This document shows, piece after piece, positions 11,332 through 37,500 of a DNA stretch of 64,000 nt. The stretch's first letter is position 1; every line of letters starts with the position of its first letter. Position numbers and translations under genes: made by a program. The stretch is from an uncultured Hyphomicrobiales bacterium (GTDB lineage: Bacteria; Bacteroidota; Ignavibacteria; Kapaibacteriales; UBA7675): assembly GCA_964445695.1 (NCBI GenBank), contig CAYULF010000028.1, positions 7,103-71,102 of the forward strand. The letters are read 5' to 3'. The notes beneath the pieces are model-generated. The model was not told where the DNA came from and searched no databases. It was given only the letters and a program-made list of their open reading frames with translations.

Positions 11332-11361
11332 CTTATCTATTTACCGTAGAACGGCGATGAA

Positions 11362-17212: not shown

Positions 17213-18697
17213 TCACTCAATAAGGGTGATTGCAACGCGGCGGTTACGTTTCCGACCTTCTTCTGTAATGTTGTTGGCGATCGGAGAACGTGCGCCAAGA
17301 CCAGAGCGGTAGAGTCGATTCGGGTTGATACCTTTTCGTTGAAGGTAATTGTAAACGTGGTTCGCACGCAACTCAGACACCCGCTGCGTTTCTTCGGGCG
17401 TTCCAAAGTTGTCCGTGTACCCTGCAATTTGAACTTCAACCGAAGGATTCTGATTCAAGAAATTGACCACGGCATCAAGGTAGTCATAGGATTCCCCTGT
17501 CAGGTCGGTGCTGAGTGCACCGCCATCAACTCCGAGAATGAATTCTTCATTGAGTCCGGCTAGCTGGATCGCAGGACGCCGCGGACGCGGAGTTCTCACC
17601 TCTGCACTGGCGACGGTAGGCGGCTCGACTGTCACCGAGTCTATGATCGGCGCTTCCGGAACAGGCCGTTGAATGATGTCCAAAGCTGCAACGGCGATCC
17701 TTTCACTCGGCTGAATGGACGGGATTTCATAGTCAAAGCGGTTGGTCAGGGTTGCCAGGTAAACCGTCGGTTCCAGATAGGTTGGGTCATAGCGCCGCAG
17801 AATCCGCGTTTCGCTGTTGAGTGCGACCTTCAGTTCCAATCCAAGTCGCATAAAGCCCAGGTTTAGATCGGAGTTGAGGTTGTTCGTCACTTCCGTGCCG
17901 TAATGCAGGCTGAGAAACGGAGCAAAACGGACCCGCGCACTTTGTGCCACTTCCAGCATCAGCACTTCGTAGGCGGCGCCCACTTGTATCCCCATGCGAA
18001 AACCGTGAACGTCCAATTGGACCGCACGGCGCTCGCGGATCAACGCTGTTGAGTCAACCGTCGGAACAACCACGGCTTCCGATCCGGTATTGAGCTCAAA
18101 ATCAAGTCCGCCAAAAACGTACAGCCCACCTACCACGTCCATTCGGGCAGATGGCGAGATTGTCAGATAATTAAATCGCGTCTCTCCTTCGTACTCAGCC
18201 AGCACGGATTGATTCTCCAGCGATTCAAAAGCTCCGTCGCGGACGTCAAACAGCGCAACATGTAGCCTCAGGCCCCAGCCCCACTCGGGTGGATTCCACT
18301 CTGCCATCCCACCGATGAAATATCCAAGCGAGGATCCGGAACCGAAATGTCGCCCGAGATTGCGAAGTTGCGCAGAGCGACTTAGCGCCAGATTCAGATC
18401 GCCGAGATAGGTGCCGAGGTTAGGACCGCCGAACACACCAAACCAGAAGTCGCCATAGCCGGAAGTTATTATCAAAGTGTCTTTGTTGTCGAGTACATCC
18501 ATGCGCGTGGCTGCGCCCACCAGTTGACGATCGGTGCTGACGTCATCAACTGAAAACTCCAGATCAGGCTGATCGTCGGCGGACGAAGATTCCGGGCCGT
18601 CGTTTTGCACTGCGAGCAGATGCAGGGGCAAACCTGCAAACAGGCACACAAGCAACAACAATTCTGGAATTCGACGCCGGACCATCGCGAAACACAC
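17213..18697 (-). CDS. OmpA-family outer-membrane protein (N-terminal beta-barrel, Pro-rich linker, C-terminal peptidoglycan-binding OmpA_C domain)
   Basis: Signal peptide; alternating aromatic beta-strands (FWFGVFGG, GYFIGGMAEW, MGIQVGAAYE); C-terminal IAGYTDN.G...N/S..LSELRA..V..YL...G...GLGARSPIANN..EEGRKRNRRV. Confidence 0.9.
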   Translation of the reverse strand: MCFAMVRRRIPELLLLVCLFAGLPLHLLAVQNDGPESSSADDQPDLEFSVDDVSTDRQLVGAATRMDVLDNKDTLIITSGYGDFWFGVFGGPNLGTYLGDLNLALSRSAQLRNLGRHFGSGSSLGYFIGGMAEWNPPEWGWGLRLHVALFDVRDGAFESLENQSVLAEYEGETRFNYLTISPSARMDVVGGLYVFGGLDFELNTGSEAVVVPTVDSTALIRERRAVQLDVHGFRMGIQVGAAYEVLMLEVAQSARVRFAPFLSLHYGTEVTNNLNSDLNLGFMRLGLELKVALNSETRILRRYDPTYLEPTVYLATLTNRFDYEIPSIQPSERIAVAALDIIQRPVPEAPIIDSVTVEPPTVASAEVRTPRPRRPAIQLAGLNEEFILGVDGGALSTDLTGESYDYLDAVVNFLNQNPSVEVQIAGYTDNFGTPEETQRVSELRANHVYNYLQRKGINPNRLYRSGLGARSPIANNITEEGRKRNRRVAITLIE

Positions 18698-20002
18698 TTA
18701 TCTGATTAGTTGAAGTTTGACGTCGGCCGTTGAAATCAAAACGGCCGGATCATCAACCGGGTATGCGGTGAACCGCACATTATATAGCCCTTGCGAGCTG
18801 AGACGCGCCGCCTCGAATCTGATCTCATAACGCCCGATCGGAGTAATCTGGCGGTCGATCAGCGTTTCAACTTCACGTCCATTGAAATCGTAAACTTTTG
18901 CCGTCAAAATTACGCGGTCGTCGACAGCATACTGAATAGTCGTCTGACGAGAAAATGGATTTGGATTTGCCTGTGCGGAACTGATGACCGAGCTCGGAAC
19001 GTACACACGCGTTTCGGCCAGATAAACCAGGCTGCCGTCAAAGTGATGATAGTACAGTCTATAAACGTACTCTTCTTCACGAAATTCAACCGTATCGCGT
19101 GTCGAGTAGTCAAGAGGCGTCAGACTCAGGCCGGGACTGTTCAGATCGGCGCGACGACAGTCCGGATCTTCAGCCGGATAAAGTTCATGGCAGGCAATCG
19201 TGTCAACAAAATCCAGTTCATCCCCCAGCTGTCCAATCGGCCTGATGCCACGCACGATAACAAAACCACGATTGGCATATTCGGATTCGGTTCGCCAGAA
19301 CAGTCTCACCTTGCGATCGCCCAGATACTCGCCATAGAAATCTACCAGCAGGAAAGGGGGCAAATCGATGTCGCGAACCTCATAGGAGGTGGCATAATCC
19401 CCGACAAGCATCGCGACGTTATCATCGGAAAAGAAAAAAGGCGCACGGTCATCAAAAATCTTGAACGCCGTGGCCTGAAATTTTGTCAGCGGCTGCACCC
19501 AGTCCATGCTGAGCGGCAGAAAGCCCGGCTCGGGAATAGAAACCCGAAAGCGACCAACCCGAATACTGTCATCAACAGCAACCGGAATACAATCGCCGAA
19601 ATTGCGGGGTCCCAGAACGCCGATACTCATGCGTCCCGGGAAGGTATTGTGAATGATTTCGTATTGGGCGGCAGGCAAATCGGAGAATCCCGGGAGCAAT
19701 TCCACTGAACATTCTTCCATTGCGATGCCGGGAAATTCCAGTTGGAATGTTCCATTTGCCCACATGAGCCATTCGTTGTCCGAGATATTTAGTACCCAGA
19801 CATCCAGGTCTACCGCATTGGGTTTGGGCTGCGCCACCAACACGGCGGAAACATGAGCAATCGTGTCCTGCTCATTTTGTGCAGAAGCCCTTTCTGGCAG
19901 TACAAGACATAGGACTGCGCAGGCAAGCGCCAGCAGAACCGCGTGCCGGCGGATTAGTACCGGCAGAAGTCGATGAAATTTGTGTGGGCGGGTTGTCTTC
20001 AT
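18698..20002 (-). CDS. Secreted protein (~434 aa): putative cohesin-like beta-sandwich + PVEL-type Ig module + T9SS type-A CTD
   Basis: Start re-set to MKTTRPHK at 20002 because the longer ORF overlaps the upstream gene. Signal peptide ends PERASA-Q. LLVDFYGE...VRLFWRTESEYANRGF module; ANPNPFSRQTTIQY...KVYDFNGREVETL...GRYEIRFEA...GLYNVRF CTD. The cohesin-like assignment is inference. Confidence 0.85.
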   Translation of the reverse strand: MKTTRPHKFHRLLPVLIRRHAVLLALACAVLCLVLPERASAQNEQDTIAHVSAVLVAQPKPNAVDLDVWVLNISDNEWLMWANGTFQLEFPGIAMEECSVELLPGFSDLPAAQYEIIHNTFPGRMSIGVLGPRNFGDCIPVAVDDSIRVGRFRVSIPEPGFLPLSMDWVQPLTKFQATAFKIFDDRAPFFFSDDNVAMLVGDYATSYEVRDIDLPPFLLVDFYGEYLGDRKVRLFWRTESEYANRGFVIVRGIRPIGQLGDELDFVDTIACHELYPAEDPDCRRADLNSPGLSLTPLDYSTRDTVEFREEEYVYRLYYHHFDGSLVYLAETRVYVPSSVISSAQANPNPFSRQTTIQYAVDDRVILTAKVYDFNGREVETLIDRQITPIGRYEIRFEAARLSSQGLYNVRFTAYPVDDPAVLISTADVKLQLIR

Positions 20003-20021
20003 ATCAGGCCATGCTCCCGGA

Positions 20022-22115
20022 TTATCGCGCAAAGGATTCCTTTTCGCGGTTGTTCCAGGAAACATTCGCATCTCGCGTTGTCACTATGCCGTTCATGTCG
20101 GTGTCGGGGTTGATATATCCCTCCGCATCGTGATTTAGCCAGGTTGCCGTAGCCGAAGAATCATAGTCTCTATCGTCAATCAAACCGTCGCCATTGGTAT
20201 CACCGCCGATCATAGCGTAATATTGACGTCCGGTTTCACTTTCATCAACAAGGTTGACGGCGTTGCTGCCGCCCAGCAGCAAAGCTGCACGCGTAAAATC
20301 AAAAGTGTGAATTTCCGGCGTCAGCATCTGTTGGTCCCGCGTTACCACGGCAAGGTGATTGCGATGGTGGACAACGATGTAGTAAGTGCCGGAATCGATC
20401 TTGATCTGAGTCTGGCCGTCACGATAGTCGACGATATTGCCGTCCCATGTGATCAGGCCGGTGCGGAAGCGGGATTCTCCGCCGCTCAACAACGTGCGGA
20501 ACTCCACCACGACCCAGTCAACAATTTCTTTGCGGCGGTCACCCAATTCTCCCATGGCAATAAACTGCCGGTTGGGATCGAGGCTGTAGGGATACATTGC
20601 CGGAGGAGAATCCGGCAGGAAGCCGCCTTCAGACAGATCCGCAGCCATACGACCATTGCGGTACGGACCTTCCATGAGAATGCGAATGTCGACAAGTGCA
20701 TTGGGCAGCAGTTCACCAATGCCGACTGCATAAAAACCGGAGCGTTGCAGATTTGCTACGCTGCCTTTGGCCCAGTTTCCGTCTATCTCAATTGTCTCAC
20801 GTGGTTCGGCCACGTTTTGCCAGGCATCAACGGTACTGTACTGCAGCTGAACATCAAAGGTGTCCAGACCGTTTAACTCATCCGTTTGATCCAGACGAAA
20901 CGCATAACCGAATTCGGCGTTAAAACCATCCTGCACAATTTCGCCGCCTTCATCTTCTGCCGTTACGGTAATGGATCGGAGAACTTTGTCTTCCGTGTCT
21001 ACCGTCAGCGGCAACGGGATAGTATCGGGCAACACTCGCACCGTCATGGCAGTCATTCCACCAAGACTTTGCTCATCGTCAAAAGCGGCATAGGTGTGTT
21101 TGTTGTTAAACACATTTTGCACTCCGCCCGCAGCCAGTCTCGTCCGCCGCACTGAACCGCGGACCTCAACATCGTCATTTCCGAATTCGGGATTTTCGAT
21201 GCTCGCATGTGTCAACACATGCTGTTCCTGACCAGGATCCGTATCGACATTGCTGCCAAGATATAATGTGTCGTTGACCGTCACGGACTGATTGAGAACC
21301 AATCCTTCCGTGGTTTCAAGCCGCAGATTCTGCAGCGTGTTGTCATCCACCGGAAGTTCCGCTCCGGAGAACATCTTCCCATCACCGATGTAGGTGACGG
21401 AAACATTTTCGCCAAACAGCGGAGCTTCGGCCAATTCGGATGCAACACTTCTTACTATCAACGCCGAGTCGCCAAGAGTAAAGTTGTTCGCCACATCGTT
21501 GCGGAACATACCGCGCAACAATTCCAGCCGACGGTTAACACTGAATCCACCACCGTTAACAACATCAGAACCAGCAGCATTGTCAAGTGCAAGAACTTTG
21601 AAACTTCCGCTGCCGTCAATCGCCTGTGCCTGAGTACCCTGCATCACAACTCGACCGTGCAGGAAATCGCGATTAATTATACCGTTGTGTTTAACACGAC
21701 CATGAGTTACAACTTCAGCGCCTTCACGCATGACGATTTGCACTTCACCTGAGGCGGTAACAAATGTGTCGAGCGTTACGATGGTATCAAGTGCTTCAAG
21801 TCGTTTAAGTCCACGGCCACTGAATTCGAGATTCTGGTAAACTATCTGGGGAACAAACTGCGATTGCGATTGGTCGTCGCCGTCATAAATAACGTGGCCG
21901 TCGATGGTGTCTTGTTGAAACGATGCCGCGGCACTGATGAAGAGACTGCCGGGATTGGTAATTCTTCCCTGGCTGCTTTCCGCTACGCTCGTTTCAATCT
22001 TGCCTGCGTTGTAAATCTGACCGGCATTCTTCATGGATCCACCTGTCCTGCCGAGCGCGATACCGGGCAGGATTGCTGAAAGGAGAACCGTCAATATGAG
22101 AATGCGCTGTTTCAC
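20022..22115 (-). CDS. Secreted beta-solenoid-type protein (~697 aa) with C-terminal EGPY...HRNHL module ending in dockerin-like duplicated Ca-binding loops
   Basis: Probable GTG start (VKQRILILTVLLSAILPGIALG signal). Shares the EVRGSVRR..FNN..V.P..KVLRSITV block with 22321-24603. The C-terminus has GDTNGDGLIDDRD and PDTDMNGIVTTRD. Confidence 0.88.
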   Translation of the reverse strand: MKQRILILTVLLSAILPGIALGRTGGSMKNAGQIYNAGKIETSVAESSQGRITNPGSLFISAAASFQQDTIDGHVIYDGDDQSQSQFVPQIVYQNLEFSGRGLKRLEALDTIVTLDTFVTASGEVQIVMREGAEVVTHGRVKHNGIINRDFLHGRVVMQGTQAQAIDGSGSFKVLALDNAAGSDVVNGGGFSVNRRLELLRGMFRNDVANNFTLGDSALIVRSVASELAEAPLFGENVSVTYIGDGKMFSGAELPVDDNTLQNLRLETTEGLVLNQSVTVNDTLYLGSNVDTDPGQEQHVLTHASIENPEFGNDDVEVRGSVRRTRLAAGGVQNVFNNKHTYAAFDDEQSLGGMTAMTVRVLPDTIPLPLTVDTEDKVLRSITVTAEDEGGEIVQDGFNAEFGYAFRLDQTDELNGLDTFDVQLQYSTVDAWQNVAEPRETIEIDGNWAKGSVANLQRSGFYAVGIGELLPNALVDIRILMEGPYRNGRMAADLSEGGFLPDSPPAMYPYSLDPNRQFIAMGELGDRRKEIVDWVVVEFRTLLSGGESRFRTGLITWDGNIVDYRDGQTQIKIDSGTYYIVVHHRNHLAVVTRDQQMLTPEIHTFDFTRAALLLGGSNAVNLVDESETGRQYYAMIGGDTNGDGLIDDRDYDSSATATWLNHDAEGYINPDTDMNGIVTTRDANVSWNNREKESFAR

Positions 22116-22230
22116 GTGTCTACGTTCTACTTCCCTGTTGGCGGAAAGGAAACCTGCTTGTTTAAGCGGAGTGACTTCAACCGTAAGCCTGCGTGCGTCA
22201 CTCACTTGCGTTGACAGCCTGTCTTTCTCC

Positions 22231-22265
22231 GGAGTACCGGTCGGGCTGTTCGCCCGACCGGTTCC
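22231..22265 (-). promoter_or_regulatory. Strong intergenic stem-loop without U-tract (mRNA-stabilising or attenuating element)
   Basis: Perfect 11-bp stem ACCGGTCGGGC-tgttc-GCCCGACCGGT (22236-22262), extendable by GGA/TCC. No T-run follows on the minus strand. Confidence 0.65.
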
Positions 22266-22320
22266 GAATCATGCTGTCTTTCCTGTCAAATCACAGAACC
22301 CATGGACGGATTCAAACTGA

Positions 22321-24603
22321 TTAGTCACAAACGCGGAGCGTACCGCCGTTGGCGATATAACCGGTGTTGTCGATCGAGTTGGCCTGGAAGTGACCAAGGT
22401 TGCTGCCGATATTACCGAAGTTGATGAAACCGGGGTAATCGATGGCATCGCCTTGCGTCGTCGTCAAAACTGCTTCCGTCGGAGCCGTCGTTGCGCCGAG
22501 ACCCGAAGCGTTCGTCAGCAGACCACCGGTGGCAAGCTGCCACGCAACCGTACCGTCCGTCTCATCGGCGGCGCCTGCGGCGTCATAACCGATAAGCAGA
22601 CCACCACCATCTTCGACCGTCACGTTGACTGCCAGAGCGTCGTCACGCGTGTTGTCGCCGCCCTGCGAATAACCCTCTTCAATCTGACCACCGATCGGGC
22701 CGGCAATCAGACCGTCAATACCGTCACGACGATAACCGACGTGAACCGTAAAGCCGTTGGGGATGATGACGTTGTCATACTCGTGCGGTTCCAGACCCTC
22801 GTCCCAGGTGCCCGGGTTCGACCAGCGACCGTCGGCAATAGCGTAGAAGGTCGTCGGTCCGCCACGCAGCAGCAGGTCGTTGGTTGCGTAGAATTCGCTG
22901 ATGGCGTTGCCCGGCATGGCAACCGCCGTAGCGTCGATACCTGCCAATTGCACATAGCGGAGCTGGTTGGCATTGTCGCGCGAAGGCGCATTACCCGTAG
23001 CAACTTTCTGCTCGTTCGTACCGTCGGCCTCGAAAAAGCGAAGCTGGTCTTCCGTCGTAACCGGCGAAGCACCACCCCAGCCGGCGCCCTGCTCGCCATC
23101 CTGCCAACCGGCGCGAATGGTAGCAGTCCAGGTGTCGTCGTCGAAGTCAAGCGTAATTTTACGATTTACGTCCGTCGAGGCGTCGTAGTTGTTCGGCGCG
23201 GTACCAGGCTGAACATTCATCTCGAAGTAGCCTGTGTACGGGTTGTTCGTGAACGTTACTTGCGATTCGGCGTTGTTGAATGTGTAAGGACCGGCGACAC
23301 CAGCGTCAACCGAACGACGCATGGCGCCTACAACTTCGGTATAGTTCGTGGCATCGTAATCGGCCGTTGCGTTGGGGTCCGTCATGAACAGCGTATTGGC
23401 GCCCATGTCCAGGTTGCCGCCTGCACCATCGGTAACACCGACGTCCAGGTTGTTGCTCATGTAAACATCGCCGCCGGCATCTTTCACACCGTTATCCGTG
23501 CTCAGGTTGCCATAGGGATTGGAAGCGACCGTCTGCATAACAACCTGGTTAGCCGCACCGCTGAACACAACCGTCGAAGCATCGTCGAAGTTGGCGTTCA
23601 CACCGGCGGCGTGGTTATTCGTCAGGCTGCCCGTCACAACCACGGTAGCGTTTTGCTCCAGATTGATCGTCGCGGTAGCCAGGTTGGCAAGCGTCATCGT
23701 GCCGGAGACCGTCACGTCGCCTGTACCGTCGCGGACAAAGAAATCACCATCGTTAACGTCGACGGTATTCGAAAATTCATTGGTCGCACCGGCGCCGGCA
23801 ATGTCAAGCAGACCGCCGTTGTCGATGGTAACCGTACCGGCAAATGTACCGTTGCCCGTTCCGGTCGTAAACTGACCGTCGGAGGCGCCGCCACCCGTGG
23901 CGTCGACCAACAGAGGCGCCGCGGCGTCCTGCGTAACTTCGTCGCCGACCGTCAGGCTACCGAGAACTTCAAAGCCGCCTGTGTTGCTGGCCAGCATAAC
24001 GAGATCGCCGTCGATCGTCGTTTCGTCGCCTGCTTGCAGCGTTTTGGTACCGGCCTCGCCCAACTGAAGATTGTTGTAGCGGTTTGTGCCGGCTGCCACG
24101 CCGACCTCAGCAAAGATGTTCTGTGCGAGCGAACCATCGTACGTGAACGTTCCGTTGTACGTACGGTTCGCGCCGCCGGCTGTGTAAACTTCGCTGACAA
24201 AAATTCCATCGGAGATGGTCTTCAGCGAGGCATCTTCAACCGTCAGGTTCTCGTAGTAGCGCCCCTGAACAGTTTGTGTACCGGCCGCTGCGGTCCAGAT
24301 CACTTCGTAAGGAATGCGCGTTCCGGCGGTTTCACCGGGCGTCAGTGCATCCACGAATACGCCGTTCTGGTCGGTGAAACGGTTGTCAATGCCTTCAAAG
24401 GTCACAGTACCGTCACCATTGAGTGCGGCGCCGGCGCCACCGCTCTGAAATTCACCGGCAGTCGTACAAAACACAATGTCGCCGATATTGTTTATCGTAC
24501 CGCCGTCATTGTTCAGATTCTGCGCAACAGCACCTGCTCCGGCGACCACGAGACCACAGGAGGTCGCAAGGGCAAGGCGCTTCAATTTGTGCTTAATCCG
24601 CAT
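22321..24603 (-). CDS. Secreted acidic Gly/Asn/Thr-rich beta-solenoid-type protein (760 aa), strongly codon-optimised; candidate major filament subunit
   Basis: Signal peptide MRIKHKLKRLALATSCGLVVAGAGAVA-Q. One FYAIADGRWSNPGTW..P..DNVII motif shared with the giant protein. Only two Cys in the mature chain. No T9SS CTD. Confidence 0.9.
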   Translation of the reverse strand: MRIKHKLKRLALATSCGLVVAGAGAVAQNLNNDGGTINNIGDIVFCTTAGEFQSGGAGAALNGDGTVTFEGIDNRFTDQNGVFVDALTPGETAGTRIPYEVIWTAAAGTQTVQGRYYENLTVEDASLKTISDGIFVSEVYTAGGANRTYNGTFTYDGSLAQNIFAEVGVAAGTNRYNNLQLGEAGTKTLQAGDETTIDGDLVMLASNTGGFEVLGSLTVGDEVTQDAAAPLLVDATGGGASDGQFTTGTGNGTFAGTVTIDNGGLLDIAGAGATNEFSNTVDVNDGDFFVRDGTGDVTVSGTMTLANLATATINLEQNATVVVTGSLTNNHAAGVNANFDDASTVVFSGAANQVVMQTVASNPYGNLSTDNGVKDAGGDVYMSNNLDVGVTDGAGGNLDMGANTLFMTDPNATADYDATNYTEVVGAMRRSVDAGVAGPYTFNNAESQVTFTNNPYTGYFEMNVQPGTAPNNYDASTDVNRKITLDFDDDTWTATIRAGWQDGEQGAGWGGASPVTTEDQLRFFEADGTNEQKVATGNAPSRDNANQLRYVQLAGIDATAVAMPGNAISEFYATNDLLLRGGPTTFYAIADGRWSNPGTWDEGLEPHEYDNVIIPNGFTVHVGYRRDGIDGLIAGPIGGQIEEGYSQGGDNTRDDALAVNVTVEDGGGLLIGYDAAGAADETDGTVAWQLATGGLLTNASGLGATTAPTEAVLTTTQGDAIDYPGFINFGNIGSNLGHFQANSIDNTGYIANGGTLRVCD

Positions 24604-24763
24604 GTTGATTTGTCCTTGATTGATGAAGGAATACAGCATGAATTGATTGAATTATGTGTTGTAATGTTTTTCGAGAGAACTGATTCTGTGCCAGAAAAGC
24701 GCTGGAATACGACGAGATGCCCAGGCTGTACTACAAACATAGCCCAGAAGCAAGCTTCAGTTC

Positions 24764-24783
24764 AATCCGTAGAACTACGTATT
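24764..24783. promoter_or_regulatory. 9-2-9 inverted repeat AATCCGTAG-AA-CTACGTATT (candidate NarL-family operator)
   Basis: Imperfect palindrome; 24761-24783 matches 41979-42001 at 22/23 nt. Confidence 0.7.
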
Positions 24784-24856
24784 TTGAGGAGGGAGAGCCA
24801 AGCAAGTACGACTGATTTTTCGTGCCATTAAATCAGAAGTGACGAAAACGTAAACG

Positions 24857-25498
24857 TCAGGGCAGATTCAATAGTGCAAATCTGATCAATCCGGCGACGT
24901 TCTTGATTTGCAGCTTTTGCATGAGGTTAGTGCGGTGAGCCTCGACTGTGCGCGGACTGATGAACAGTTCTTCAGCGATTTCCTTACTGGTCAAGCCCTT
25001 TGATATCAACTTCAGAATTTCCTGTTCGCGGTCTGACAGGTATATATTGACATTGGCAATGCTGAACTCATCACTGAAGTATGGAACTTCGTTGGGATTG
25101 GCCATTATCTTCAAAATTGACGAGCTGAAAACGCGCTGACCACGCACCACGGCATGCAGCGCATCAATCAATTCCTGACGGCCAACTTCTTTTGACAGGT
25201 ATCCGTTGGCCCCGGCGGACATGGCCTTGGTCAAGTGAAAATTGTCTTCGAGCGACGTCAACATGATGATTCGAATGCTCTTGTCGTACTCCTTCAGCTC
25301 CAGGACTGCTTCAATTCCGGTCTTTTCCGGCATCAGGATATCGATCAGTGCCGCATCGGGGTGGAGTTCTTTGACGAGCCGGACAGCATTGTTACCATCG
25401 GGCGCTTCGCCGACAATCTCAATGTCGTTTTCAGACTTCAGCAGCGTTTTCAATCCGAGCCGAAATACTTCATGATCATCTGCGATGACTATACGCAT
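24857..25498 (-). CDS. NarL/FixJ-family response regulator (REC + LuxR HTH)
   Basis: IADDH, LIDILMPEKTG, GANGYLSK, LSDREQEILKLI.KG.TSKEIAEELFISPRTVEAHRTNLMQKL; lies 63 bp downstream of the giant gene. Confidence 0.95.
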   Translation of the reverse strand: MRIVIADDHEVFRLGLKTLLKSENDIEIVGEAPDGNNAVRLVKELHPDAALIDILMPEKTGIEAVLELKEYDKSIRIIMLTSLEDNFHLTKAMSAGANGYLSKEVGRQELIDALHAVVRGQRVFSSSILKIMANPNEVPYFSDEFSIANVNIYLSDREQEILKLISKGLTSKEIAEELFISPRTVEAHRTNLMQKLQIKNVAGLIRFALLNLP

Positions 25499-25561: not shown

Positions 25562-28500
25562 TTATGAGCCGATCTTCAATCGACCCTCATTGAGTATCGT
25601 CGCGTCATTGCTGACTGCTCCGAATACTTCAAAAGCATTGACGCCGGGTAAAATATGCAATATTGCGCCGTTCTGCACACGTAAATCTCCACGGGCGCGA
25701 ACGGGCAGGGTCACGGTCTTGGTGCCGCTAAGGTTGATATCGACGTTGCCGTAGCCGTCCAGCCCATTGGGCGGAGCTGTGACGATCTGATTGATACCGT
25801 AATACTCGACCGTGTTTTGAATGTCTATCCGGTAGTTTGCAAATCCAGGCAAGGCAGTTGAAAAGTCGGCCGAACCACCAATCCTGAGCAGGGTATTGCT
25901 CGTCATAACGGCTTCCCCACCGCCCGCATTACCTACTCCGAAAGTCACCGCATCCAACACGCCGGAAATCAGTCTCATAGCCTCGGACACGGTCAAGTCG
26001 CGATCGAGCGTCACAACGTTGTTACCGGTCGCTCCACTGTTTTCGACCGTGAAACTCGCCATCGTGGCAGGCAGGCCGTCGCCCAACACCTGATTGGTTG
26101 TTCCACTATATACATAGCTCGCTTCCGTTGAAAACAGCCTGTTTGCGGTCCGAACATTGCCGCTGCTGACCGGCGATGCCACAATTCCCTGCGGAGACCC
26201 GATTCGGAGAGTCGCTCCCGTCGTGGTTTGAAACCACTCGCCGGAGATTGACCGGTCGGCCAGATCTAACGTTCCGGTATTTGACAGTGATGTTCCGACA
26301 GTCATACCGCCAATCGTGCGATCCGTGTCCAGTAAAACGACGTGGTCGCCTGTCCCGGCGGTCCCGCCTCCGATTACGATGCTGTCCTGCGGATTGTCGG
26401 GGAAAATTCCCGGGCCAACCGGCGCGCCTAGGTGCGATGGATCAAATGTCCACGTAGAACCAATATTCCACAATCCGGACGCCAGACTATAGAATATTCG
26501 CCTGAAAGCACCGACATCGCCGAGGGTCCAGTCTCCCTCAAACTCAGATGCCGCCAAGGCGGCCGGCGAAGTAAAGATGTTGCCTCCGGAGTTAAGTGTT
26601 GCACCCGACATCAGACGCCATGAACCACTGCCGCCTTCATCAACCGGATTCCAGCGGGCGATCGTGGCAAAATTGCTTTCGTCGCCTGTTATGTCATCAA
26701 CACCGTCGAGGTAATGAAACGTCCACTGACCGGACACACCGGTGCTTACGTCGCCTATTGCCCAATAACGCCGGATATAATCGCTCGCTCCGCCGCTCAG
26801 ATGCAAGTGGCCGCCGTCCGCTTTCTGACCCGGCGATACTCGAACACCAACAGAGCCATCGGCTCCTGCAACAGCAGCGGCAAACTCCGCAGGAGTGTAT
26901 TTATCCGCGCCGCCGTCAAAAGATCCAAGGGGGAACAGATAGTTGCCTCCGGAGGCCGTCACGGCTCGATGCAGTCGTCCGCTCAGCAGGCTCGTACGCA
27001 CGTATCGATATGGCGCGGCGCTTGTCCCCGCGTCGACAATTGCGCCAACAGCCGAAGACTGAACCGTAAGATTTGCACTGCTTCCAAGTTCGACCACCTG
27101 CTGATTTGAATTGGCGCCTTCACGCAGGTCGAGTATGCCGGCTACGCTGACGTCGTGACCAAGGTGAACGACGCCGCTACCCGCGGCGCGATTCATGGTC
27201 ATGTGCTGCAATGCCGTCACACCCGCGCCGGTAACGTTCTGATCGTCCGAGCCGCCGCCCTGGAAGGTCATGACCGCATCAGGAGCGGCTGCAGCGCTTC
27301 TCAGTTCGGTGAAATCAATGCGTCCGTCGTTCAACACGTCCGCCTGAATTCTGAGGTTACCGGCCGCCGCCAGCGGATGCAGCACAGCGCTTGTACTGCC
27401 GACCGCCAGATTCCAGATTGCACCGTTACTCACTTCTATATCAAATTCCTGGGCTGCGGCCGATAGAGCGTCTCCGAACTGAATCGTTCCGCCGGTTACG
27501 TTGACCGTGGACGCCAAAATATTGACATCCGCCGGGCGACCGACGGCGCTGCTCATATTTGCATTGCGCACCAAAAGCTTTCCGGCAGCCATGGCAAACG
27601 AAGAGCCGGGAGCGCGCAGATCAAATGAACCGAGCGTGGCGTTGTCATGACCGACAGTTGCAACATTAACCTGTCCGCCGGCCTGATAGTAGTCGAGCAA
27701 ATAGGTATCGACGGCTACTTCGGGACTGATGCGTCCTGCGACCGTCATCGTTCCGTTTAACACACTGATCCGGCTGCCGGCAGTATTGGTGTAGCGCAAG
27801 GAATTCCCGTCAAAATTTCCAATCACAACCGCTCCGCTGCTGTTAAGCAGCAGCTCGCCGCCATCGATCACCTGGGATGCACCGGAGCCGTCCTGCCCCA
27901 TGACATATGAACCAGATCCAGTTATGTGCAACGCCCCTGTTGCCGCAATTGTCTGAGTTCGAGATTGTCCAACGCCGTCGTCCATCGTCAACGTGCCGGC
28001 ACGCTGCTCCCAGGTGCCGTTAATAAAATTGATGGCGTCGCCGCTGCCGATTCGGCTGACACCCAGGTCGACAGAACTGACGACCGGCGTTGCCGGTGCA
28101 CCTTTGTCAAGCGTAACGCCATGCAGACGCACCGCCCCTACGCCGCTCAGGTTCTGAGTTGCCGTTGAGCTGAAGATCGTTTCGGCTTTGAAATTGGAAT
28201 TGTTCGGCACGGGACGCATCAACCATTCGCCGTCAATGTTAACATCGCCGCGCAGAGACAGGCTGTGTGTCCTTGGACCTGTGCCGCTCGTTTCTACCTC
28301 AAATGCCGCTCCGCCGGCAACTGAAAGACGACCGTTAACAAGAAGGGCCTGGTCAGCCGGAGAGCCAAACGCATCATTGTTGTCAAACACCAGTCGACCG
28401 GTTTGAACAGTCAGGTCGCCGCTCATGTCAATCCCGTCGCGATTGAGCATGACATTGCGTGTATTGTTGTCCGTGTCCACAAGAATGTCATTAACAGCAA

Positions 28501-31500
28501 GGGGAAACGCGCCGCCAAAAAACTGATCCAGTGAACCGCTGAAGACGTAATCTGCACGCGGCTCGAACACTCGCACGGCATCGCTGAATCGCCAGACGCC
28601 TGCGCTAGTGCCGGATTCGATACCCACAGCCGCAGCAATGTTAACAACCGCATCATCGCGTACGATCGATGCGCTGGTGCCGTAGGGACTTTCCGTCAGG
28701 AATGAACCCGCGCCGATGCGCAAAACCCCGTTGCTTGTTAACTCGAGATAGGCAATCTCCGGCTGCGTGTTTAACAATATTTCGTGGCCACCGCCAATAA
28801 TCACGCTGTCGCGCACCTCGTACTCTTGTCCGGGCGCGAGCTGCCAGTCGTGATTCGGGTATACCCCGGCAGGCACCGCTGCGCCGGCAAATCCGGTAAA
28901 TGACCAGGATGTTGAGTTATTCCAATCGCCGTCGCTGCGGCTATAGAAAATGCGTTGCGCACGCTCACCTATATAAAACTCGCCCAGGCCGGGCCAGGGA
29001 GTCGCTCCGACGGACAGTCGTACGTTGGCCGCACCAACATTCCACTCCAGATTCCGCCGATCCGACCACTCCGGCGTTTCAAGCGGAATACTGCGACGGC
29101 GGATAATGCTGTTAGTGGTTGTAAGGGATGCGAGCTCAGCCGCCGGGAAGCCAAGTGTGAGGTTGGCGGTGCGGCTGCCCAGCGCAAAGGTCGTTGCACC
29201 CGTTACGCTCCAATATCTGTCGATTTTGGCGGCAGCGTCGAGGCGGTTGCCGATCCATTCTTCATCGGGAACCGGCGTATACGAGATGACGTCAACCGAT
29301 CCGGCCACACCGCCGCCACCGGCCGCCAACTGTACCTCAACCGGCGTGTAATCGTCCAGATTGCCTACTTCAAAGACAATGTTGTCGGCCCCCGCGCCGG
29401 CAGGTTTGCGCATCTTTCCGTCAACGTGTCCCGCGTTGTTAACACGCAGTACATTGCCGGGAACCTGCACTTCCACATAGCGGTCTGCATCGCGGACGCG
29501 GATGTTGCCGGAGGAACTGAACGTCAAAGTGTTAATGACATGTACATGCGCCGTCGAGGAAGCCACATAGTCGGATTTAACCAGCAGATCCTCACCTTCA
29601 ATGCTGATGTCGTAGAAGTCAACGCCGCCGTGGTTGTCCAGGCGCAAATCACGGTCAATCTGACCGCGGAACGCAACTGATGCATCCAGCGGATCAAAAA
29701 GTCCATTATTGCGCAGTATCATGTCGCCGTACAGGTGCAGGCTGCGGCGTCCGCAGTTAAATGTTCCGTGCTCAATGAGCAAAGTGTCGCGAACGCCGAC
29801 GGGGTTTGCGCCGGTCGGCAAGGACAGGAACACGGAATTAAACGGCGTCGAGTTGTTGTCTACAATGATGGCTGCAACACTGTCCGGAAGTGCATCGCCG
29901 GTATTCTGGCTGCCGGCAGTACTGTTAAACACGTAGCGGCCCACCCCAAAAATACGGGTGTCGGTCTGTATTGCACCGCGGTCGCCAAGGGGAGCGATTC
30001 CCTGCAGGTGATGCATGCCAAGCGTACAGGAATCCTGGAGTTCAAAACTCAGCCCGCGCACGGTGCCCAGGTCGCCTTCAATGTACAGTTCGCCGGGCAG
30101 ATTGTTAAACACCTCCACTAGAACAGAGCGAATAGTGGGTGTGATAATTGAACCGGGAAGACTGACGCGTTTGCCGTTGCCGATCCGCACAATGTCCGTC
30201 GACTGATCCGGAATGCGCGGTGCGACCGCCCCCGTGTAACCTGTTATCGACCATGTTGTGGGGTCGGTCCAGTCGCCGTTCTGACGACTATAGAAGGTCG
30301 TGCTGTTTAACTCCGCCAGCAGGAAATCGCCGAATTCCGTGTTGCCGGAAGAGCGCATCGTGGTGTCGGTGCGCGTCGGCGTTGAAAGCGTCGCCCAACT
30401 TCCGCCGGATGGGCACAGTGCCGGAAGGTCCGGGCAGGCAGGCGTGTAGCGATGCTGCTCAAAAAAGAGCAATTCTGGACTGTTGCGCAGATCGTCGGGA
30501 TTGATAAACTGCAGCGTTAAACGGAAGGTACGCGAAGCTCCCAGGTCAAACGCCCCGGCAGTTGTAACATTCCAGTAGCGTTGAATATTGTTGTCGAGTT
30601 TAACATTTGCCGTGGAGATGTGCGGGTGATTGCTGCCGTTGGCCATCACGCCCACCAGACCGGCGGTTCCCCCGCTGCCCTGCGTTTCAAACACCGCCGG
30701 TGTATAAGCACTCAGGGAAGCGGATGTGCCGACCGCAAAGTCGACTATTCTGGCGCCGGCGTCGACCCAACGATAGAGCCGACCATCAACGTGCCCCTGG
30801 CCGTTGCGAATCAATTGCAGCGTACTGCTGGTAGTCGGGGAATGCTCAACATAACGTGCATTGCTGCGAGCATCAATGAGGGCCTGGTTTCCGACGGCAA
30901 ACTCCAGCGTGTTGTGCACGATCAGATTGGAGTTGGCGCCGCTGCCAAGAATAAGATTTCCACCGGATTTGGACAGCCGCAAATTGTAAGTTTGCAATCC
31001 ACCGGCATCGTCATTGTAGATCGTTTGGTCGGAACTTCCGTTCAACACCAGCAGGCGGGCGTCCGACGGATCTGAACCGCTGACCGCATCAAACAATCCG
31101 TAGTTAACAATATCGCCGCCCACTTCCAGCGTATTGCCGTACAGTTGCAGACGGTGCGCGTTGTCGACTTCGACTCCGTTACTGATGACAAATGTTTCTT
31201 CCGTGACCCGTGTTTTGACTCCGCCGGAGACAGCATGCAGCGAATAGATCGGCATGGAACCGGCAAGTTTGATAATACCGGTATTTGTAAACGTTGAATC
31301 TCCCGTCTGAATCAATCCGCCCGTCATACCGCTTCCGCTGCCCGCATCGACGCGGAAGTCCGCCGACGCGCCGCTGGTTCCATTGGCGACAATAATGCGA
31401 CCGCCACCCATGCTGAACGACGAGCCGGAATTAACCATATCAAAGCCAATCCTGGACGCATCGCTGTTGCCTTGCCGCAGTACGCGCGTAGTTCCACCGG

Positions 31501-34500
31501 AAGACTGTTCGTACTGCACCGTCGAACCGGCGTTAAATCGGCCAAAAATGCCCGCAACATCAAATTCACCGTCTTCTACTCGGACAATTGTGCCCGCGCG
31601 ATACAGAAAGTGTTCGTTTAACCCGTCGCCGACGCGCAGATCGCCGCCACGCAGTCGTATCCGTGTGGCTGCGTTGGAAATCAGGCTGCCGGAGCTCTTG
31701 ATTTCCCCATCCTGAATATCAAATGCAGTGTTCGGCGACATGGTAACTGAAACGTTGCCATATGAGAGGCCCAACGTTCCGCTGGTGGCATGGCGCAGCA
31801 CCCCGGCAAGCGGTCTGAACAAATAATTCGATGCACGGCCGGTCGCTTCGGAAAAGGTCGCCGACAGGTTTATGAGTGTATCTGCCAGGCCGTTGGATTT
31901 CTGCATTCTGACGCGTGCAACATCGCCCCAGACGCCGTCTCCGCTGAGCGTGTTGTTGCCTCCGCCGGAAAAACGCAAAACCGTATTGTTGGTCGGACTG
32001 TTGTTTAAGTAGACGCCCGCACTTGAACCGGACTGTGCAACGTTGCGCATGTTGCCCGTGATTGTCAGTGTGTCGTAACGCGCGCCGGAGTTGTCGCCGT
32101 CGATAATGCCATCGTACTCAACATCCAGATTGCGACTGACAACCAGATGTTTCAGTCCCGGCGTGGCACCGAATCGGACAATTCCACGGCCCAGAGCCTC
32201 CGTGCCGTTAAACGGGCCACCGATGCGCAACGAGTCGACCATGACTGAATCGAGGTCCATCGTGATAATGTGACCATCGACCATTACGGTATCGTTGCTG
32301 TACAATTCAAATGGATAGTAGGAAGCCGAAATACCGGCATGCCCGATGTTGGACCAATTTTCAGGATTGCTCCAGTCGCCCGTCTGCCGGCTGTAGAAAA
32401 TCCGGCCGGTAAAAAAGACGAGTTTGCCGCCGGCGCTCCAGTCGCCATCGACAAATGGCGCATCGGTAGCCACCACCGGCGAAGGCGTGGCTTTGGGGTT
32501 GTCGCCGACGTTGATTTCCCACTCGCCGGTACCGCGGTAAAACGCGGGCAAATAACTCGAGACGTCGCCTGTAATGTCAACATCTTCGTACCCAAACTGC
32601 AGGGAGTTTGAGACGATGGCTGAAATATCGCTTGTCGTCACCGTCCAGAATTTTTTCAGCATGTCATCCTGCAAACGCTGAGGATGCAATCCATCGCGCA
32701 GTCTGACGCCGATCGTCGGCAAAGCACCGTAAGTTCCTGTGATGCTGAGATCGGCCGGATTGTACACCGTGTCAATACCTATCGGGAACAGGAACGACTT
32801 CGCGCCGGCCGCCGTACTAAACTGTTTAATGATGATGCCCGCGCTGGTAGACCCGTCGCTGCGGAACATCCGTGTTTTGCTGAAAACTCCGGCACCGGGA
32901 CTCAGAGTCGCCGCAGGCTCAAACGTCAATTCAATATCGTTTCCAAGGAGAACAAGGTTGTCCTCGTCGAACGTCATTGTGCCGCCGATGGTGGCACTGG
33001 TGGCAAACTCAAGGGTGTTTTCGTCTTTGTTCAGGCTGAAATCGTTAAAACTTGTCGCTGCGCTGCCGCGAATTTCCTGCTGTTTAAATCCAACACAGGT
33101 CACCTCTCCCGTTCCGGTGTTGAGCGCGGCAGTGGAATTGTTGTTAACCCAGTCACCGCCGAGGTCGATATCATTGCTGCCGATTTCAAATGTACCGCGC
33201 GTTAACACAAGCGAGTCGGCCACGTCAATATTCTTGCCGAGTTGAATCGTGCCCGGGTTTGTCCGCTGTGCGTCGACTTCAAAAGCCCACAAGATGTCCG
33301 GCAGTCCGTTGCCCGTCTGCTGGGTCACCTGAATTGCGTCATTAACAATCAGCACCGTATAGTCTTCCACTTCGCCGGTACTGCCGTTGCAGGGCCCTGA
33401 CGTGTTGGTTCCTTCGCGCATCTGTACGCGCATCCGTGCAACGCCAGGTAAGGTTCCGCCTGGAATTGTGAAGTCAGGCGAGGTCTGCTGACCGGACCCT
33501 GTGAAATCGACCATCCGCTCAGACGAGTTGTCGTCAAACGACCCATCGCGGTCAAAATCGATCCATACACGCCAGCGTTTGGTGCTGCCCGTGCTTGGAT
33601 TAAATATCATGTCGTACTGCTGCCCGGCTGTCATGGTAATGACGCTGTCGGCATAGTAAAACAAGCCGTTGCCGAAGTTGTTCGTCGAATTATCAAAAAT
33701 CGTGGCAGTGCTGTTGTCGCGCACGCGCACGCGCGAAATCCAGTGTGTATTTGAATTCCAACCGGGTCGACAATAGCTGAAGTCACCGCCGACCGACGCA
33801 TTGTATCCCTCAGCGGTATAAACAATGTTCATGCTGTCGAGGAACGCACGCGTATATGTCAACACATTGCCGTTCCCGGTAAATCCACTGCGGATACCAT
33901 CCTGCGATCCAACTCCAAGCGTACCTCCCTTTTCCACCGTCAGCGCCGCTCCACGCAATTCAAACGGTCCAAGCATCAGCGTGCCGGTTTTCTTGACCGT
34001 CACATTGGGCCCATAAAAGGCATTCTCGGTTGCACCGCCGCCGTACAGCCATGATGTACCAATGTTACAGTCCATCGAGACTGTGTGGTTGGCGGCTATG
34101 AATACTACGTCATACTGGGTATTCGGGTGGCGCGAAGCCGGTGCGCCGTTGTGGTCGACGGTCGACCAAGTGTTAACATCGCACCAGTCGCCGTCCGTGC
34201 GGCTGTAGAACGTCGTGATCGCAATCGAATTCTGGTTGCCTATGACAAAGTCGCCCAGCAAGGTCGAGCCGTCCGTCAAAACCTGTGTCGATCCCAACAG
34301 GGTGTCGACCGGGAAGTCGTTGGCGACGATAGTACTGGCGCTACCGTCGTAGTCAATATTGCCGAGTGTTAAACGCGTATCGCCGCAGCCGAAGCCGGCC
34401 GCATAGTTCGCGGCGGCTGTATTGGGACGCAGAGACTGCCAGCCCTCGGTCGCGCCGCGGTGAATACCGATTTCACTACAGGCGATCGCATCGATAAGGC

Positions 34501-37500
34501 CGGCATCCGCCGGATCGAGAATCTGGCATGTCACGGTCACCGTGCGATTGCCGCGAACAAAAGTTGAATTCTGCGGGGTCGTGACACGCCAGAAGCGAGG
34601 AACATACCGGTTGGGATCAATCGGCGTGTTAAAATGGTTCAGCGCCGTGTGCCGCCCAGGATTGTTGCGAACACCAACCAGGCCCGCCGTCCCGCCCGAA
34701 CCTTCCAATCTGAACGTAAACGGCACGTAATTTTCATCCTGCCCAACGTGAAACAAAACCGTCTGGGTGCCGGTACCAACGCTCATCTGCAGGTTGCCGT
34801 CCACGTGACCAATCCCCGCGCGCACCACACTGCCGGGTACTATTACATTGCAGTCCGTATTGCTGCGCGCGTCGATGTACGCCTGGTTCCCCGTTTCAAA
34901 TCGCAGGCTGCCATTGACGGTTAGCGCGGAGTTTGTTCCGAGTGTAAGCAGCCCCGTATTGATCGCTTTGTCCACTGTCAGGTTAAACAGCGAGAGATTG
35001 GACGCCGAAGCAATGATGCTCTGACCGGTGCTGCCGTTAAACGTCACCGTAGAAGTCTGTGGCGTGATCGAAGCATTGGTTGTTGCGCGCAGATCCCCCT
35101 GCAGGTTCAACGCCGCTCCAAGCACCAGTTCACCACTCTCAATGCGGCAGGTGTCAGTGACATTAACGCTGTTGTCCAGCGTGACATCCGCGGCATTTTT
35201 CTGAATGATCAGGCGTGCCACGGTGCCGGGCAGTCCGTCGCCGGTGATTTGTGAGGCCAATGCACCGGTGTAAACAAATGTCCCACGATTGTGCGATGCC
35301 GGATTGTAATTGCGCACCGAGGTCTGGATCGACCCGGAAGCCGCCGCGGCGCGCAATCCACCAACGTTGCCGCACATCAGCATCGACTCTACGTCCATAC
35401 TGAACGTACCTGTGCCGGTCACCACATTGATGTCCGCATTAAACACGCCGGATGAGTCGATTGTCAGTTCCCCATTAACGGTCGCCGCGGCGTCGAGACG
35501 AATGGTTTTGCTGTCGCCAATGTAAATGCGTGCATTGGCTGTGGGCACGATGGACGCGGGAGCGCCGCCATATCCCTGCGTAGACCAGGAGGCCGGATTT
35601 GTCCAATCCCCGTTGTCGACAAGACTGTAAAAACTGTATGCATCGGGCTCGCCAATTGTCAGCGTGCCGAACTCGGTAAGTCCTTCAAATGCAATGGTCG
35701 TCGCCGTGCGCAGCCCCTGGGCCGGATTCTCAAATCGATTCGGCAATATCCAGGACGTTCCATTCCAGAGGCGTGATTCGTAGAGGAGCGGGTCGGCACC
35801 ATTGCGCGCATCGCCGGCCAGGAAGTTAAGTTCAGCGGTGTAACTGCGATCTGCGCCAAGACTAAACGATCCGCCGGACGGCACGGAAATACGCCACTGA
35901 CGCCGTACGTGACGCGAATCGTTTAACAAACTGCCCGCCGGAGCAACACCGGTGCTCACGGGCGAAGATGATGCGATTACAGTGTCCGATCGAATGCCCA
36001 CCACTCCGGCACTTCCACCAGTCCCGTCAACAGCGAGTATTACAGGCGTATAAGCGGCGGCATAACCGACTTCGTACTCTATCGATTGCGGCCCTGTTGC
36101 AACAGTTTTCCGCAATTCTCCGACGACGTGACCGGGAGCGCCGCCGCCACGCACAATTGATCCCTTAGTCCAGATGTGACGCTCGCCGACGTCGATATTT
36201 CCGCCTGTAAGGATAAGGCTGTTTTCAATTGTCAGTCCATCCGTCGCCGCACCAATAAACCGTGCATCAAGTCCCGCACCGCCGTTGTCGACAGTCAGAT
36301 CGTAAAACTCCTGACCATGTCCGGATACTCGCAGTTTTTGCTGCGCCGCACCGTTAAATACAACCTGTGAATTGCCGGCCGAAAACGTCCCACCCGTATT
36401 GATCCAGTCCCCTGCCAGGCTCAGCGTTGAACTGGTCATGTTCAGCGTTGCCGATGTGCCCATCAACAGGTCATTGTCAATTGCCATATCGTCCAGCGGC
36501 GTGATTGCACCCAGACCGTCAAACAGAACGGTGTTAAATGCATTGTCCACCGTACTGCGCGATCTGATATTGATGTTCTCACCCAATGATTCGGAGCGAA
36601 ATATAACGGCATTGTTCCCGGCGTCAAAAACGCCACCGCTGTTCTCCCAGTCGCCGCGAACTTCCAGGTCAAAGCCGGCCGACTCAAGCGTTGTATTGGT
36701 CTGAATTTCAAGATTGTTAAGCACGACAAATGTACTGGCGCCGGTGCTGGAGAGCGACTTTACGCCGCTGCCCGACGTTACGAGGTTGTAGTAGTTCAGA
36801 TAAACAAGTGAATCGGCGGGAGCAAGCGGCCGCGTCGGAATCGACTGAGCGCCCGCCGCGTTAAACACTACGGTAGAACCGTCGGTGAGAAAACGCTGCG
36901 AGGCGGCGCCGGCAAATTTCAGTTCGGAAATATCCAGTAAAGCACCGATTCTGATCTGTCCCTGCGGACGCAGGCTGATCGCCGCAGTTGGCCCGCGCTC
37001 TCCGCTGATGGCAAGTTCGTTGTACTGCAACACGGCCGGACTGGAGCCTGAGCTGGGAATTGTCTGGTTACCGGTGCCGCCAAACGTCACACGACCATTG
37101 GTAAATGTGGGAGCGCTGTAGTTGGTCGGAAATGTATTGCGCACCAGGAGCTCGCCGTCGCGCATCTTGAGACTGCGCCCGGAACTGTTGCCGTTGACGG
37201 TGAATGCAGCCAGATCGAGTACGCCGTTTTCTATTACCAGCGAATCGCTGATCGCGATGGACTTGCCTAGCACCAGGGTGTCGCCCACGGCTTTGTCAAC
37301 AATGATTGTCTGCACTGGGCTGGGCAGCCCGTCGCCCGTGGATTGCGGCGAGGCTGTTCCGTTAAATCGATACACGGCTGCTGCGCTCAGATCGCGAATG
37401 GTCGTCTGCACCGCTCCGGACGCTCCAACCAACGCAAAACCTTCGGAATGGGCATTAACAAATTCCGTGTTGTCGGCCAGCCGCAAAGTATCGCCTGTAA

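Follow-up and report, generated by a model that had tools for sequence, protein, structure and literature searches.

Do the two ends of a secreted beta-solenoid protein meet and, if so, do they meet within one chain or between chains? The question is raised by a gene on the minus strand of a 64,000-nucleotide (nt) stretch of contig CAYULF010000028.1 (GenBank assembly GCA_964445695.1), here called the window, from an uncultured bacterium placed in the Kapaibacteriales. The gene, here called the target, encodes a 760-amino acid (aa) precursor. An earlier note, made from the sequence alone, had taken its product for a major fibre subunit, with similar open edges at both termini that stack head-to-tail and an inter-subunit disulfide that locks the shaft. 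Comparison with relatives favours, with somewhat better than even confidence, a related reading: the gene would encode the major subunit of a modular fibre of Sec-exported beta-solenoid proteins, restricted to Kapaibacteria, Ignavibacteria and Chlorobiota, with head-to-tail joints between its subunits.

Terminal rungs and their cysteines

The mature target chain begins with QNLNNDGGTINNIGDIVFC and ends with SIDNTGYIANGGTLRVCD. Cysteines are found at positions 46 and 759 and, inside the signal peptide, at position 16, with none elsewhere; the termini and the two mature cysteines are thus as the earlier note had quoted them. Residues N746, G748 and N752 of the C-terminal motif (C-motif) are invariant in alignment A1. 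An AlphaFold2 model of the target, built on a 17-sequence alignment (mean predicted local distance difference test score, pLDDT, 76; predicted template modelling score, pTM, 0.74), has a short-strand solenoid at residues 28-390, a long-strand beta-sandwich at 398-560 and a short-strand C-domain at 585-760. Strands start at residues 28, 36 and 42 and then at 50, 60 and 66, a rung period of approximately 22 residues.

The likeness between the two termini is weak within this protein. When the matrix of the family C-motif is applied to the target, the N-terminus ranks only fourth among the internal matches, and residues 256-268 score higher. At the family level the likeness is non-random, and the N-terminal 22 residues are the best internal C-motif match in 64 of 193 members, vs about 3% expected.

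Conservation of the two cysteines in orthologs had been set beforehand as a test, and they are not conserved: the pair Cys46 and Cys759 is present only in P0001, an NCBI ortholog with 96% identity. Eighty loci from different species were fetched for comparison. The homologue at locus L002 (59% identity) has no N-side cysteine, and its C-terminus is cut by the contig end; that at L003 (45% identity) has neither cysteine. Judged by the yardstick of the earlier note alone, this would count as a refutation of its proposal.

Cysteines were surveyed in 193 non-redundant family members from Kapaibacteria, Ignavibacteria and Chlorobiota, both locus-derived and from databases. Thirty-nine have a cysteine in the N-terminal motif (N-motif; first 30 mature residues) without a local partner, and 37 of these 39 also have a cysteine among the last 90 residues, which in 25 cases lies within the final 30. 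Where an N-terminal cysteine is missing, a cysteine in the last 90 residues is found in 20 of 105 members (Fisher p = 2e-17, phylogeny not fully corrected for). Another 49 members have an N-terminal cysteine with a local partner near residue 89, and not one of the 49 has a cysteine in the last 30 residues.

The positions of the paired cysteines shift together. Counted in mature numbering on the N-side and from the end of the chain on the C-side, cysteines at 3-4 go with -19 or -21, those at 6-9 with -14 or -16, those at 13-15 with -8, that at 16 with -6, and those at 19-23 with -2. The N index and the distance from the C-terminal end add up to 20-25 in 19 of 20 sequences taken from these lineages (mode 22; the remaining one gives 30), with a Spearman coefficient of 0.92 and a slope of +0.85. 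The paired terminal cysteines follow a parallel, in-register relation. If the C-terminal end of one chain is written ahead of the N-terminal end of the next, the paired residues are approximately 22 positions apart, which is the rung period in the model. The pair of the window fits this register exactly, with NIGDIVFCT aligned to NGGTLRVCD.

On a neighbour-joining tree the terminal cysteine pair needs at least 16 changes (gains or losses), with a root state of "absent". As far as this tree goes, the terminal-rung cysteine pair, and with it the putative disulfide, has been gained or lost many times. Pairs that recur on one register point to N-terminal and C-terminal rungs that are therefore spatial neighbours.

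Matching motifs and cysteines in neighbouring chains

Spatial neighbours could belong to one chain or to two, and the proteins encoded on either side of the target bear on the choice. The target is flanked by the gene of a giant 4820-aa protein and by that of a 727-aa protein. Pairwise BLASTP of the target with either is uninformative, and their relation is drawn from profile-profile comparison. Target residues 22-502 align with residues 47-438 of the 727-aa protein (hhalign probability 99.4%, E 2.6e-21), in an alignment that spans the signal-peptide end, the AQ site and the N-motif; residues 279-625 are homologous to the giant C-terminal region (probability 96.6%, E 5e-10). By these profiles the giant, the target and the 727-aa protein are paralogous modules.

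As the earlier note had seen, the giant ends in a similar motif without cysteine, SNDATILNEGRLKIGS, and a C-motif of this type (N…I.N.G.IEIG[QNE]) is found at the giant C-terminus in almost every locus. The same note had described a 697-aa protein that starts with a similar motif. The motif, MKNAGQIYNAGKIE, is present, but a start at that Met is probably wrong: a 727-aa open reading frame (ORF) runs upstream of it through a signal peptide, KQRILILTVLLSAILPGIALG followed by RTGGSMKNAG. Because the ORF extends through the signal peptide, the N-motif of this protein sits at its mature N-terminus and not at the initiator Met. The C-terminal domain of the 727-aa protein ends in DxNGDG-type repeats. 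In the target, the C-domain opens with GRWSNPGTWDEG, and the motif GRWSNPxTWDEG at this point is near-invariant in the family and resembles the start of G8-type beta-helices. The giant gives a weak G8 match (E 3.5e-5).

The giant C-terminus is sequenced in 39 loci, and in seven of these a cysteine lies within its last 12 residues. It is at -8 in L010 and L015, where the target C-motif cysteine is also at -8; at -2 in L013, L014, L021 and L077, where the target has -2; and at -2 in L037, where the target has -3. A matching N-side cysteine is present in the target in all seven loci (7/7), and a giant C-motif cysteine is found in none of the 25 loci whose target has no C-motif cysteine (p = 2e-4). 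Because the giant is a separate protein of >3000 aa, its C-terminal cysteine can meet the target N-motif only between chains. A target docked on the giant would not be clasped on itself, since one N-motif fits only one C-motif.

The 727 homologue has a cysteine at or near the N-side position of the target in three clades. The first comprises L008 and L012, with C10 in the target and C12 in the 727 homologue. The second comprises L031, L048, L052, L054 and L058, with C8 in the target (the target start in L052 is not placeable) and C8-9 in the 727 homologue. In the third, L063, L067, L072, L076 and L077, the target cysteine is C50 and that of the 727 homologue C42, in the loop that follows the homologous GxVxW/Y strand. 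This N-side cysteine is the sole cysteine of the mature 727 protein in L008, L012, L067, L076 and L077. In the sister loci L069 and L079, whose targets have no C-terminal cysteine, the 727 homologue is also without an N-side cysteine.

Joints of this kind are also found within single polypeptides. Six database proteins of 1450-1580 aa are seamless fusions of target and 727 protein, with no signal peptide at the joint, where NGGRIEVSQ runs directly into SLVSTGLIRNNGTV. In the fusion P0086 the hexad periodicity continues through the joint, and in P0107 two cysteines 21 residues apart lie on either side of the C-motif. AlphaFold2 predicts the C-motif and the following N-motif of a P0086 joint fragment as continuous short strands (pLDDT 83-90) that adjoin the 727-type solenoid; in this fragment, modelled on a shallow alignment, prediction of the remaining target C-domain is poor. 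Two hybrids of another kind, P0103 (911 aa) and P0114 (794 aa), have a target-type N-module up to NDLLLR and then a 727-type C-terminal domain (LEGPYR…HRNHL…TTRDxNxxWNN). Because both switch at NDLLLR, a module boundary is placed at target residue ~582.

The fibre reading and its rivals

In the proposed fibre the last ~22 residues of a subunit (C-motif N.G.I.N.G.IE[IV]G) would form an open solenoid rung, on which the N-motif of the following subunit (its first ~22 mature residues) would stack, parallel and in register; the solenoid would thereby run on from chain to chain. The chain would be polar, from the giant through (target)n to the 727 protein, with the same joint throughout. With a C-edge only, the giant would be one end of the fibre; the target, with both edges, would be the repeating shaft; and the 727-aa protein, with an N-edge only and a distinct C-terminal domain, would be the opposite end. 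This opposite end is probably the anchor at the cell, in the vicinity of the 457-aa and OmpA-like proteins, because the 727 protein has its distinct DxNGDG-repeat domain and is encoded beside them. Matched cysteines across the joint (here Cys46 and Cys759) would add an optional disulfide staple in some lineages. Head-to-tail stacking of the terminal edges, as in the earlier proposal, thus gains comparative support from the cysteine register, the covariation with the giant and 727 proteins, and the fusions. So does, from the motifs and cysteines of the neighbours, the suggestion that the giant supplies a C-edge and the 697-aa (now 727-aa) protein an N-edge. The disulfide does not hold up as a general lock of the shaft, and would survive as a lineage-specific staple.

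We infer polymerisation, with more than one target per fibre, from the partners of the target cysteines and from signatures of expression. In the window and in L001 neither the giant nor the 727 protein has a partner cysteine, and in L010, L013, L014, L015, L021 and L037 the N-terminal region of the 727 protein has no cysteine. For each target cysteine the one partner present throughout is the second cysteine of the target, and this points to target-target joints. Codon usage in the target shows a markedly stronger bias than in the giant and 727 genes. The earlier note had described the terminal codons as almost all TTC, ATC, AAC and GGT; this is incorrect, as the first 20 mature codons hold three AAT and one each of ATA, ATT and TTT. 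Its contrast with the giant gene holds gene-wide: GGT 0.50, ATA 0.03, AAC 0.75, CGA 0 and TTA 0 in the target, vs GGT 0.22, ATA 0.13, AAC 0.56, CGA 0.12 and TTA 0.05 in the giant.

A putative RNA hairpin lies in the 115-nt spacer (22206-22320) after the target stop codon. It is very stable and GC-rich and has no T-run, for which reason it was not flagged in a simple promoter and terminator scan, where nothing rose above shuffled expectation. Across loci, the 110 nt after the target stop give z<-3 in 52 of 71 (median z -4.4), vs 3 of 67 after the stop of the 727 homologue (median z -0.3). Attenuator or stabiliser hairpins follow major-pilin genes, and the hairpin is reminiscent of these. The codon bias and the downstream hairpin suggest a subunit that would be made in excess.

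The same evidence bears on a different arrangement, in which the giant, the target and the 727 protein are the pieces of one split beta-helical adhesin, rejoined end to end in a fixed 1:1:1 ratio without any homopolymer of the target. We consider this unlikely, though well short of negligible. The three proteins are paralogous modules, target and 727 proteins do occur fused in nature, and in L077 all cysteines can be paired using single copies of each protein. But in the window and in L001, L010, L013, L014, L015, L021 and L037 the target has both cysteines and the 727 homologue none, and in the window and L001 the giant is without cysteine as well, so single copies would leave co-evolved cysteines unpaired; the stronger codon bias of the target and the conserved hairpin also suggest production in excess of its partners. 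The N-terminal rung might instead stack on the C-terminal rung of its own chain, with an intrachain disulfide, in a monomeric surface or periplasmic protein. The two cysteines belong to one polypeptide and always occur together, and intramolecular and intermolecular stacking predict an identical register. However, the N-motif positions covary with the C-terminal cysteine of the giant, which is necessarily a relation between chains; the C-side positions covary with cysteines of the 727 paralogue, single-cysteine 727 proteins included; and in the fusions the C-motif runs directly into the N-motif of another protein. In addition residues 391-589, modelled as a compact sandwich, would have to span a rod of ~110 A. 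A clasp within the chain is accordingly given a small chance.

It is very improbable that the termini have no special relation, being generic beta-helix rungs with two cysteines by lineage-specific accident. The absence of the pair from the closest relatives other than the ortholog would agree with this, as would the internal rung at 256-268 that outscores the target N-terminus as a C-motif match. Against it are the ~16 independent gains or losses, the strict diagonal register, the 37/39 association and the matching cysteines in giant and 727 proteins.

Several observations weigh against the fibre reading itself and should be noted. With a giant and a 727-aa protein that have no matching cysteine, the cysteine pair of the window could in principle be intramolecular. 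The target+727 fusions imply a workable 1:1 arrangement. The cysteine statistics are not fully corrected for phylogeny. Pairs of N-side positions 8-12 with -47 to -66 depart from simple stacking of the last rung and need a loop that reaches the joint. Five sequences have an orphan cysteine at -12; in L023, L024, L033, L038 and P0110 it is the sole cysteine of the mature protein, within the C-motif (NDGCLNIGG), and a partner for it was found neither in the N-motifs of the target and the 727 protein nor at the C-terminus of the giant. Loci that have a protein like the 597-aa protein of the window (see below) upstream of the target, and no giant within 10 kb, are a poor fit to the model. Surface location and export route are assumed: Pfam and NCBIfam gave no recognised outer-membrane export signal in the giant, the target or the 727-aa protein.

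The fibre could represent an unrecognised class of surface fibre in Gram-negative bacteria, composed of large, folded Sec-exported solenoids with terminal-rung stacking, a giant adhesin cap, a paralogous anchor cap and recurrent interchain staples. This wider claim is tentative, at somewhat less than an even chance, and includes the equally tentative suggestion that such a fibre would assemble without known pilus machinery. The fibre may be connected with adhesion, or with the gliding of Chloroherpeton-like bacteria, for which there is no explanation so far. If the fibre reading is true, the few known kinds of bacterial surface polymer would gain a fibre type, from a branch of the Fibrobacteres-Chlorobi-Bacteroidetes (FCB) superphylum that is large and for the most part uncultured. 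Natural cysteine variation would then act as a cross-linking experiment that traces a subunit interface by residue, which is a rare case, and self-joining, in-register rigid solenoid rods that can be stapled covalently would be possible scaffolds for protein materials.

Genomic setting and known systems

The coordinates of the target, its motifs and the neighbouring genes are collected in Table 1.

Table 1. Target gene, its sequence features and other features of the window
Feature	Position	Strand	Remarks
Target gene	22321..24603	(-)	760-aa precursor, 733-aa mature beta-solenoid protein; putative major fibre subunit
Signal peptide	24523..24603	(-)	27 aa, signal peptidase I type; predicted cleavage between AVA and Q28
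N-terminal rung motif	24463..24522	(-)	QNLNNDGGTINNIGDIVFCT; mature residues 1-20; Cys46 codon 24466-24468
C-terminal rung motif	22324..22377	(-)	SIDNTGYIANGGTLRVCD; residues 743-760; Cys759 codon 22327-22329
C-domain	22324..22857	(-)	Residues 583-760; would present the C-edge; no counterpart in the 727-aa paralogue
RNA hairpin	22228..22268	(-)	Predicted minimum free energy -49 kcal/mol, z -5.3
Giant protein	25562..40024	(-)	4820 aa; terminal C-motif at 25565-25612
727-aa ORF	20022..22205	(-)	Paralogue of target N-module: signal peptide, N-motif (21993-22034), solenoid, sandwich, different C-terminal domain
457-aa protein	18698..20071	(-)	Secreted, with signal peptide; C-terminal region like a type IX secretion system (T9SS) type A sorting domain
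494-aa OmpA-family protein	17213..18697	(-)	Barrel-like N-terminal region; OmpA-type peptidoglycan-binding C-terminal domain
LuxR-type response regulator	24857..25498	(-)	Between giant and target genes
Second LuxR-type response regulator	16222-16866	(-)	
597-aa protein	40091-41884	(-)	Secreted; repeated GNVGIGT..P...LDV.G units
~1500-aa ORF	1399-5907	(-)	
~1500-aa ORF	6371-10891	(-)	FlgD_ig-type C-terminal match
~1500-aa ORF	11362-15915	(-)	FlgD_ig-type C-terminal match; weak T9SS type A match
Antisense ORF	22390-24831	(+)	813 aa; covers the entire target gene

A longer target ORF, with 12 extra residues, could begin at 24639; the ATG at 24603 is supported as the start because the ortholog P0001 is also 760 aa long. 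The minus-strand reading of the gene is supported by the agreement of homologues and NCBI annotation. The antisense ORF is probably a by-product of codon composition; other Gly/Thr/Asn-rich genes are likewise overlapped by long antisense ORFs. Q28, at +1 after the predicted cleavage, is kept in 190 of 193 relatives, and an N-terminal Gln after signal cleavage is common in Ignavibacterium and Chloroherpeton (the Q-rule, PMC5837995). A lipoprotein reading of the Cys16 site was rejected, since the site has no lipobox and Cys16 is not kept in the family, whereas Q28 hardly ever varies.

The giant (>3000 aa) or a protein like the 597-aa protein is followed by the target, the 727 homologue, the 457 homologue and the OmpA-family protein, and the order giant-target-727-457-OmpA is kept in about 70 of the 80 loci. 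A 727 homologue is found in 71 loci, a 457 homologue in 67 and an OmpA-family protein in 54; loci that fall short of these genes are largely at contig ends. The T9SS type A likeness of the 457-aa protein is given by weak Pfam and TIGRFAM matches, with the consensus PNPF..T.I.Y...V.L.VYD..GR.V. In at least five loci, L013 (15684-17570), L077 (15543-17435), L053 (15555-17447), L005 (16047-17981) and L039 (15483-17363), the 457 and OmpA homologues are separated by a ~630-aa gene, and in many others a gap of this size is present there. The product of the gene carries WD40-like repeats and, at its C-terminus, a region that resembles a T9SS sorting domain; the gene is absent from the operon of the window. 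L032 has two target-family genes in tandem, 9770-12223 and 12568-13542, the second cut by the contig end, a hint that the number of shaft-type subunits exceeds one in some genomes.

Only the closest loci, L001-L004, have a response regulator between giant and target. In the window the two regulators (receiver and GerE) flank the fibre genes; a histidine kinase next to either was not noticed. The repeats of the 597-aa protein are tail-fibre-like. Its homologues of 800-1200 aa replace the giant directly upstream of the target in ~10 loci (e.g. L031, L048, L052, L054, L058); the C-termini of these larger homologues (…YLKFTRIQ) are without a C-motif. The three ~1500-aa ORFs stand in tandem downstream of the operon, and the two nearer ones were scanned for domains. 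The codon bias of the ORF nearest the operon is above that of the target (GGT 0.61, ATA 0, AAC 0.81), which suggests another abundant surface protein.

Searches of the target against Pfam, NCBIfam and a PDB profile database gave no match, and a Foldseek search of its model against PDB gave none at E<=0.001; the best hits were beta-helices of tailspike, Ag43 and Hbp (E >= 0.07). The 727-aa and 457-aa proteins and the ends of the giant gave nothing significant in Pfam, NCBIfam, PDB sequence and Foldseek PDB searches. Homologues of the target amount to 16 clusters by word-indexed search; exhaustive profile search gave 695 representatives, counted at 50% identity, at E<=0.001 and 200 at E<1e-30. 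A species-level genome set holds 97 loci, nearly all labelled Kapaibacteria, Ignavibacteria, Chlorobiota or Chloroherpeton, or belonging to mislabelled metagenome-assembled genomes. The family is lineage-specific yet large. No published description of the system was found in literature searches, and no RNA sequencing runs with the target sequence were found; matches were to DNA metagenomes from aquaculture and biofloc samples only.

Several known systems share part of what is proposed here. Bactofilins are likewise beta-helical and polymerise end to end, but they are small and cytoplasmic and form non-polar filaments; no match to DUF583 was found with Pfam. Autotransporter and two-partner secretion (TPS) adhesins (Ag43, Hbp, FHA) share the general beta-helix fold but are single chains and not end-to-end heteropolymers. 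The N.G.I rung motifs of the target resemble those of autotransporter and TPS passengers; Pfam and NCBIfam gave no match to a translocator barrel, a TPS domain or a TpsB gene. Giant adhesins of the SprB type and T9SS cargo offer a further parallel in the FCB superphylum, a giant surface protein with repeats that is encoded alongside accessory genes. Here only the neighbours, the 457-aa and ~1500-aa proteins, have weak type A C-terminal matches; a type A (TIGR04183) or type B (TIGR04131) sorting domain was not found in the target, the 727-aa protein or the giant C-terminus (Pfam, NCBIfam), and no PorP/SprF-like gene was recognised.

Type V (FimA/Mfa1) and chaperone-usher pili are likewise polar fibres of paralogous major, tip and anchor subunits in which a terminal segment completes the fold of the next subunit, and type V pili are found in the FCB superphylum. 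They rely on strand exchange into an immunoglobulin-like groove, with protease-activated lipoprotein precursors (type V) or a chaperone and usher, whereas rung stacking is proposed here. FimA/Mfa, P_gingi_FimA, usher and chaperone domains were not found in the operon (Pfam, NCBIfam), and the target signal is without a lipobox.

The closest mechanism is that of curli (CsgA/CsgB), in which solenoid subunits dock head to tail via their first and last repeats, so that a single solenoid runs through them, and a paralogous minor subunit, CsgB, is cell-proximal. A Pfam scan gave no curlin repeat (Curlin_rpt) in the target, the 727-aa protein or the giant, and no Csg families (CsgG, CsgE, CsgF) were found among the operon neighbours with Pfam and NCBIfam. 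Curli subunits are 13-kDa amyloid repeats that are secreted unfolded, whereas those proposed here would be 730-aa multidomain proteins with another type of solenoid (rungs of ~22 residues) and a giant tip protein. Cysteines engineered across the curli joint form disulfides (PMC10192328); in the family described here, equivalent substitutions appear to have arisen naturally.

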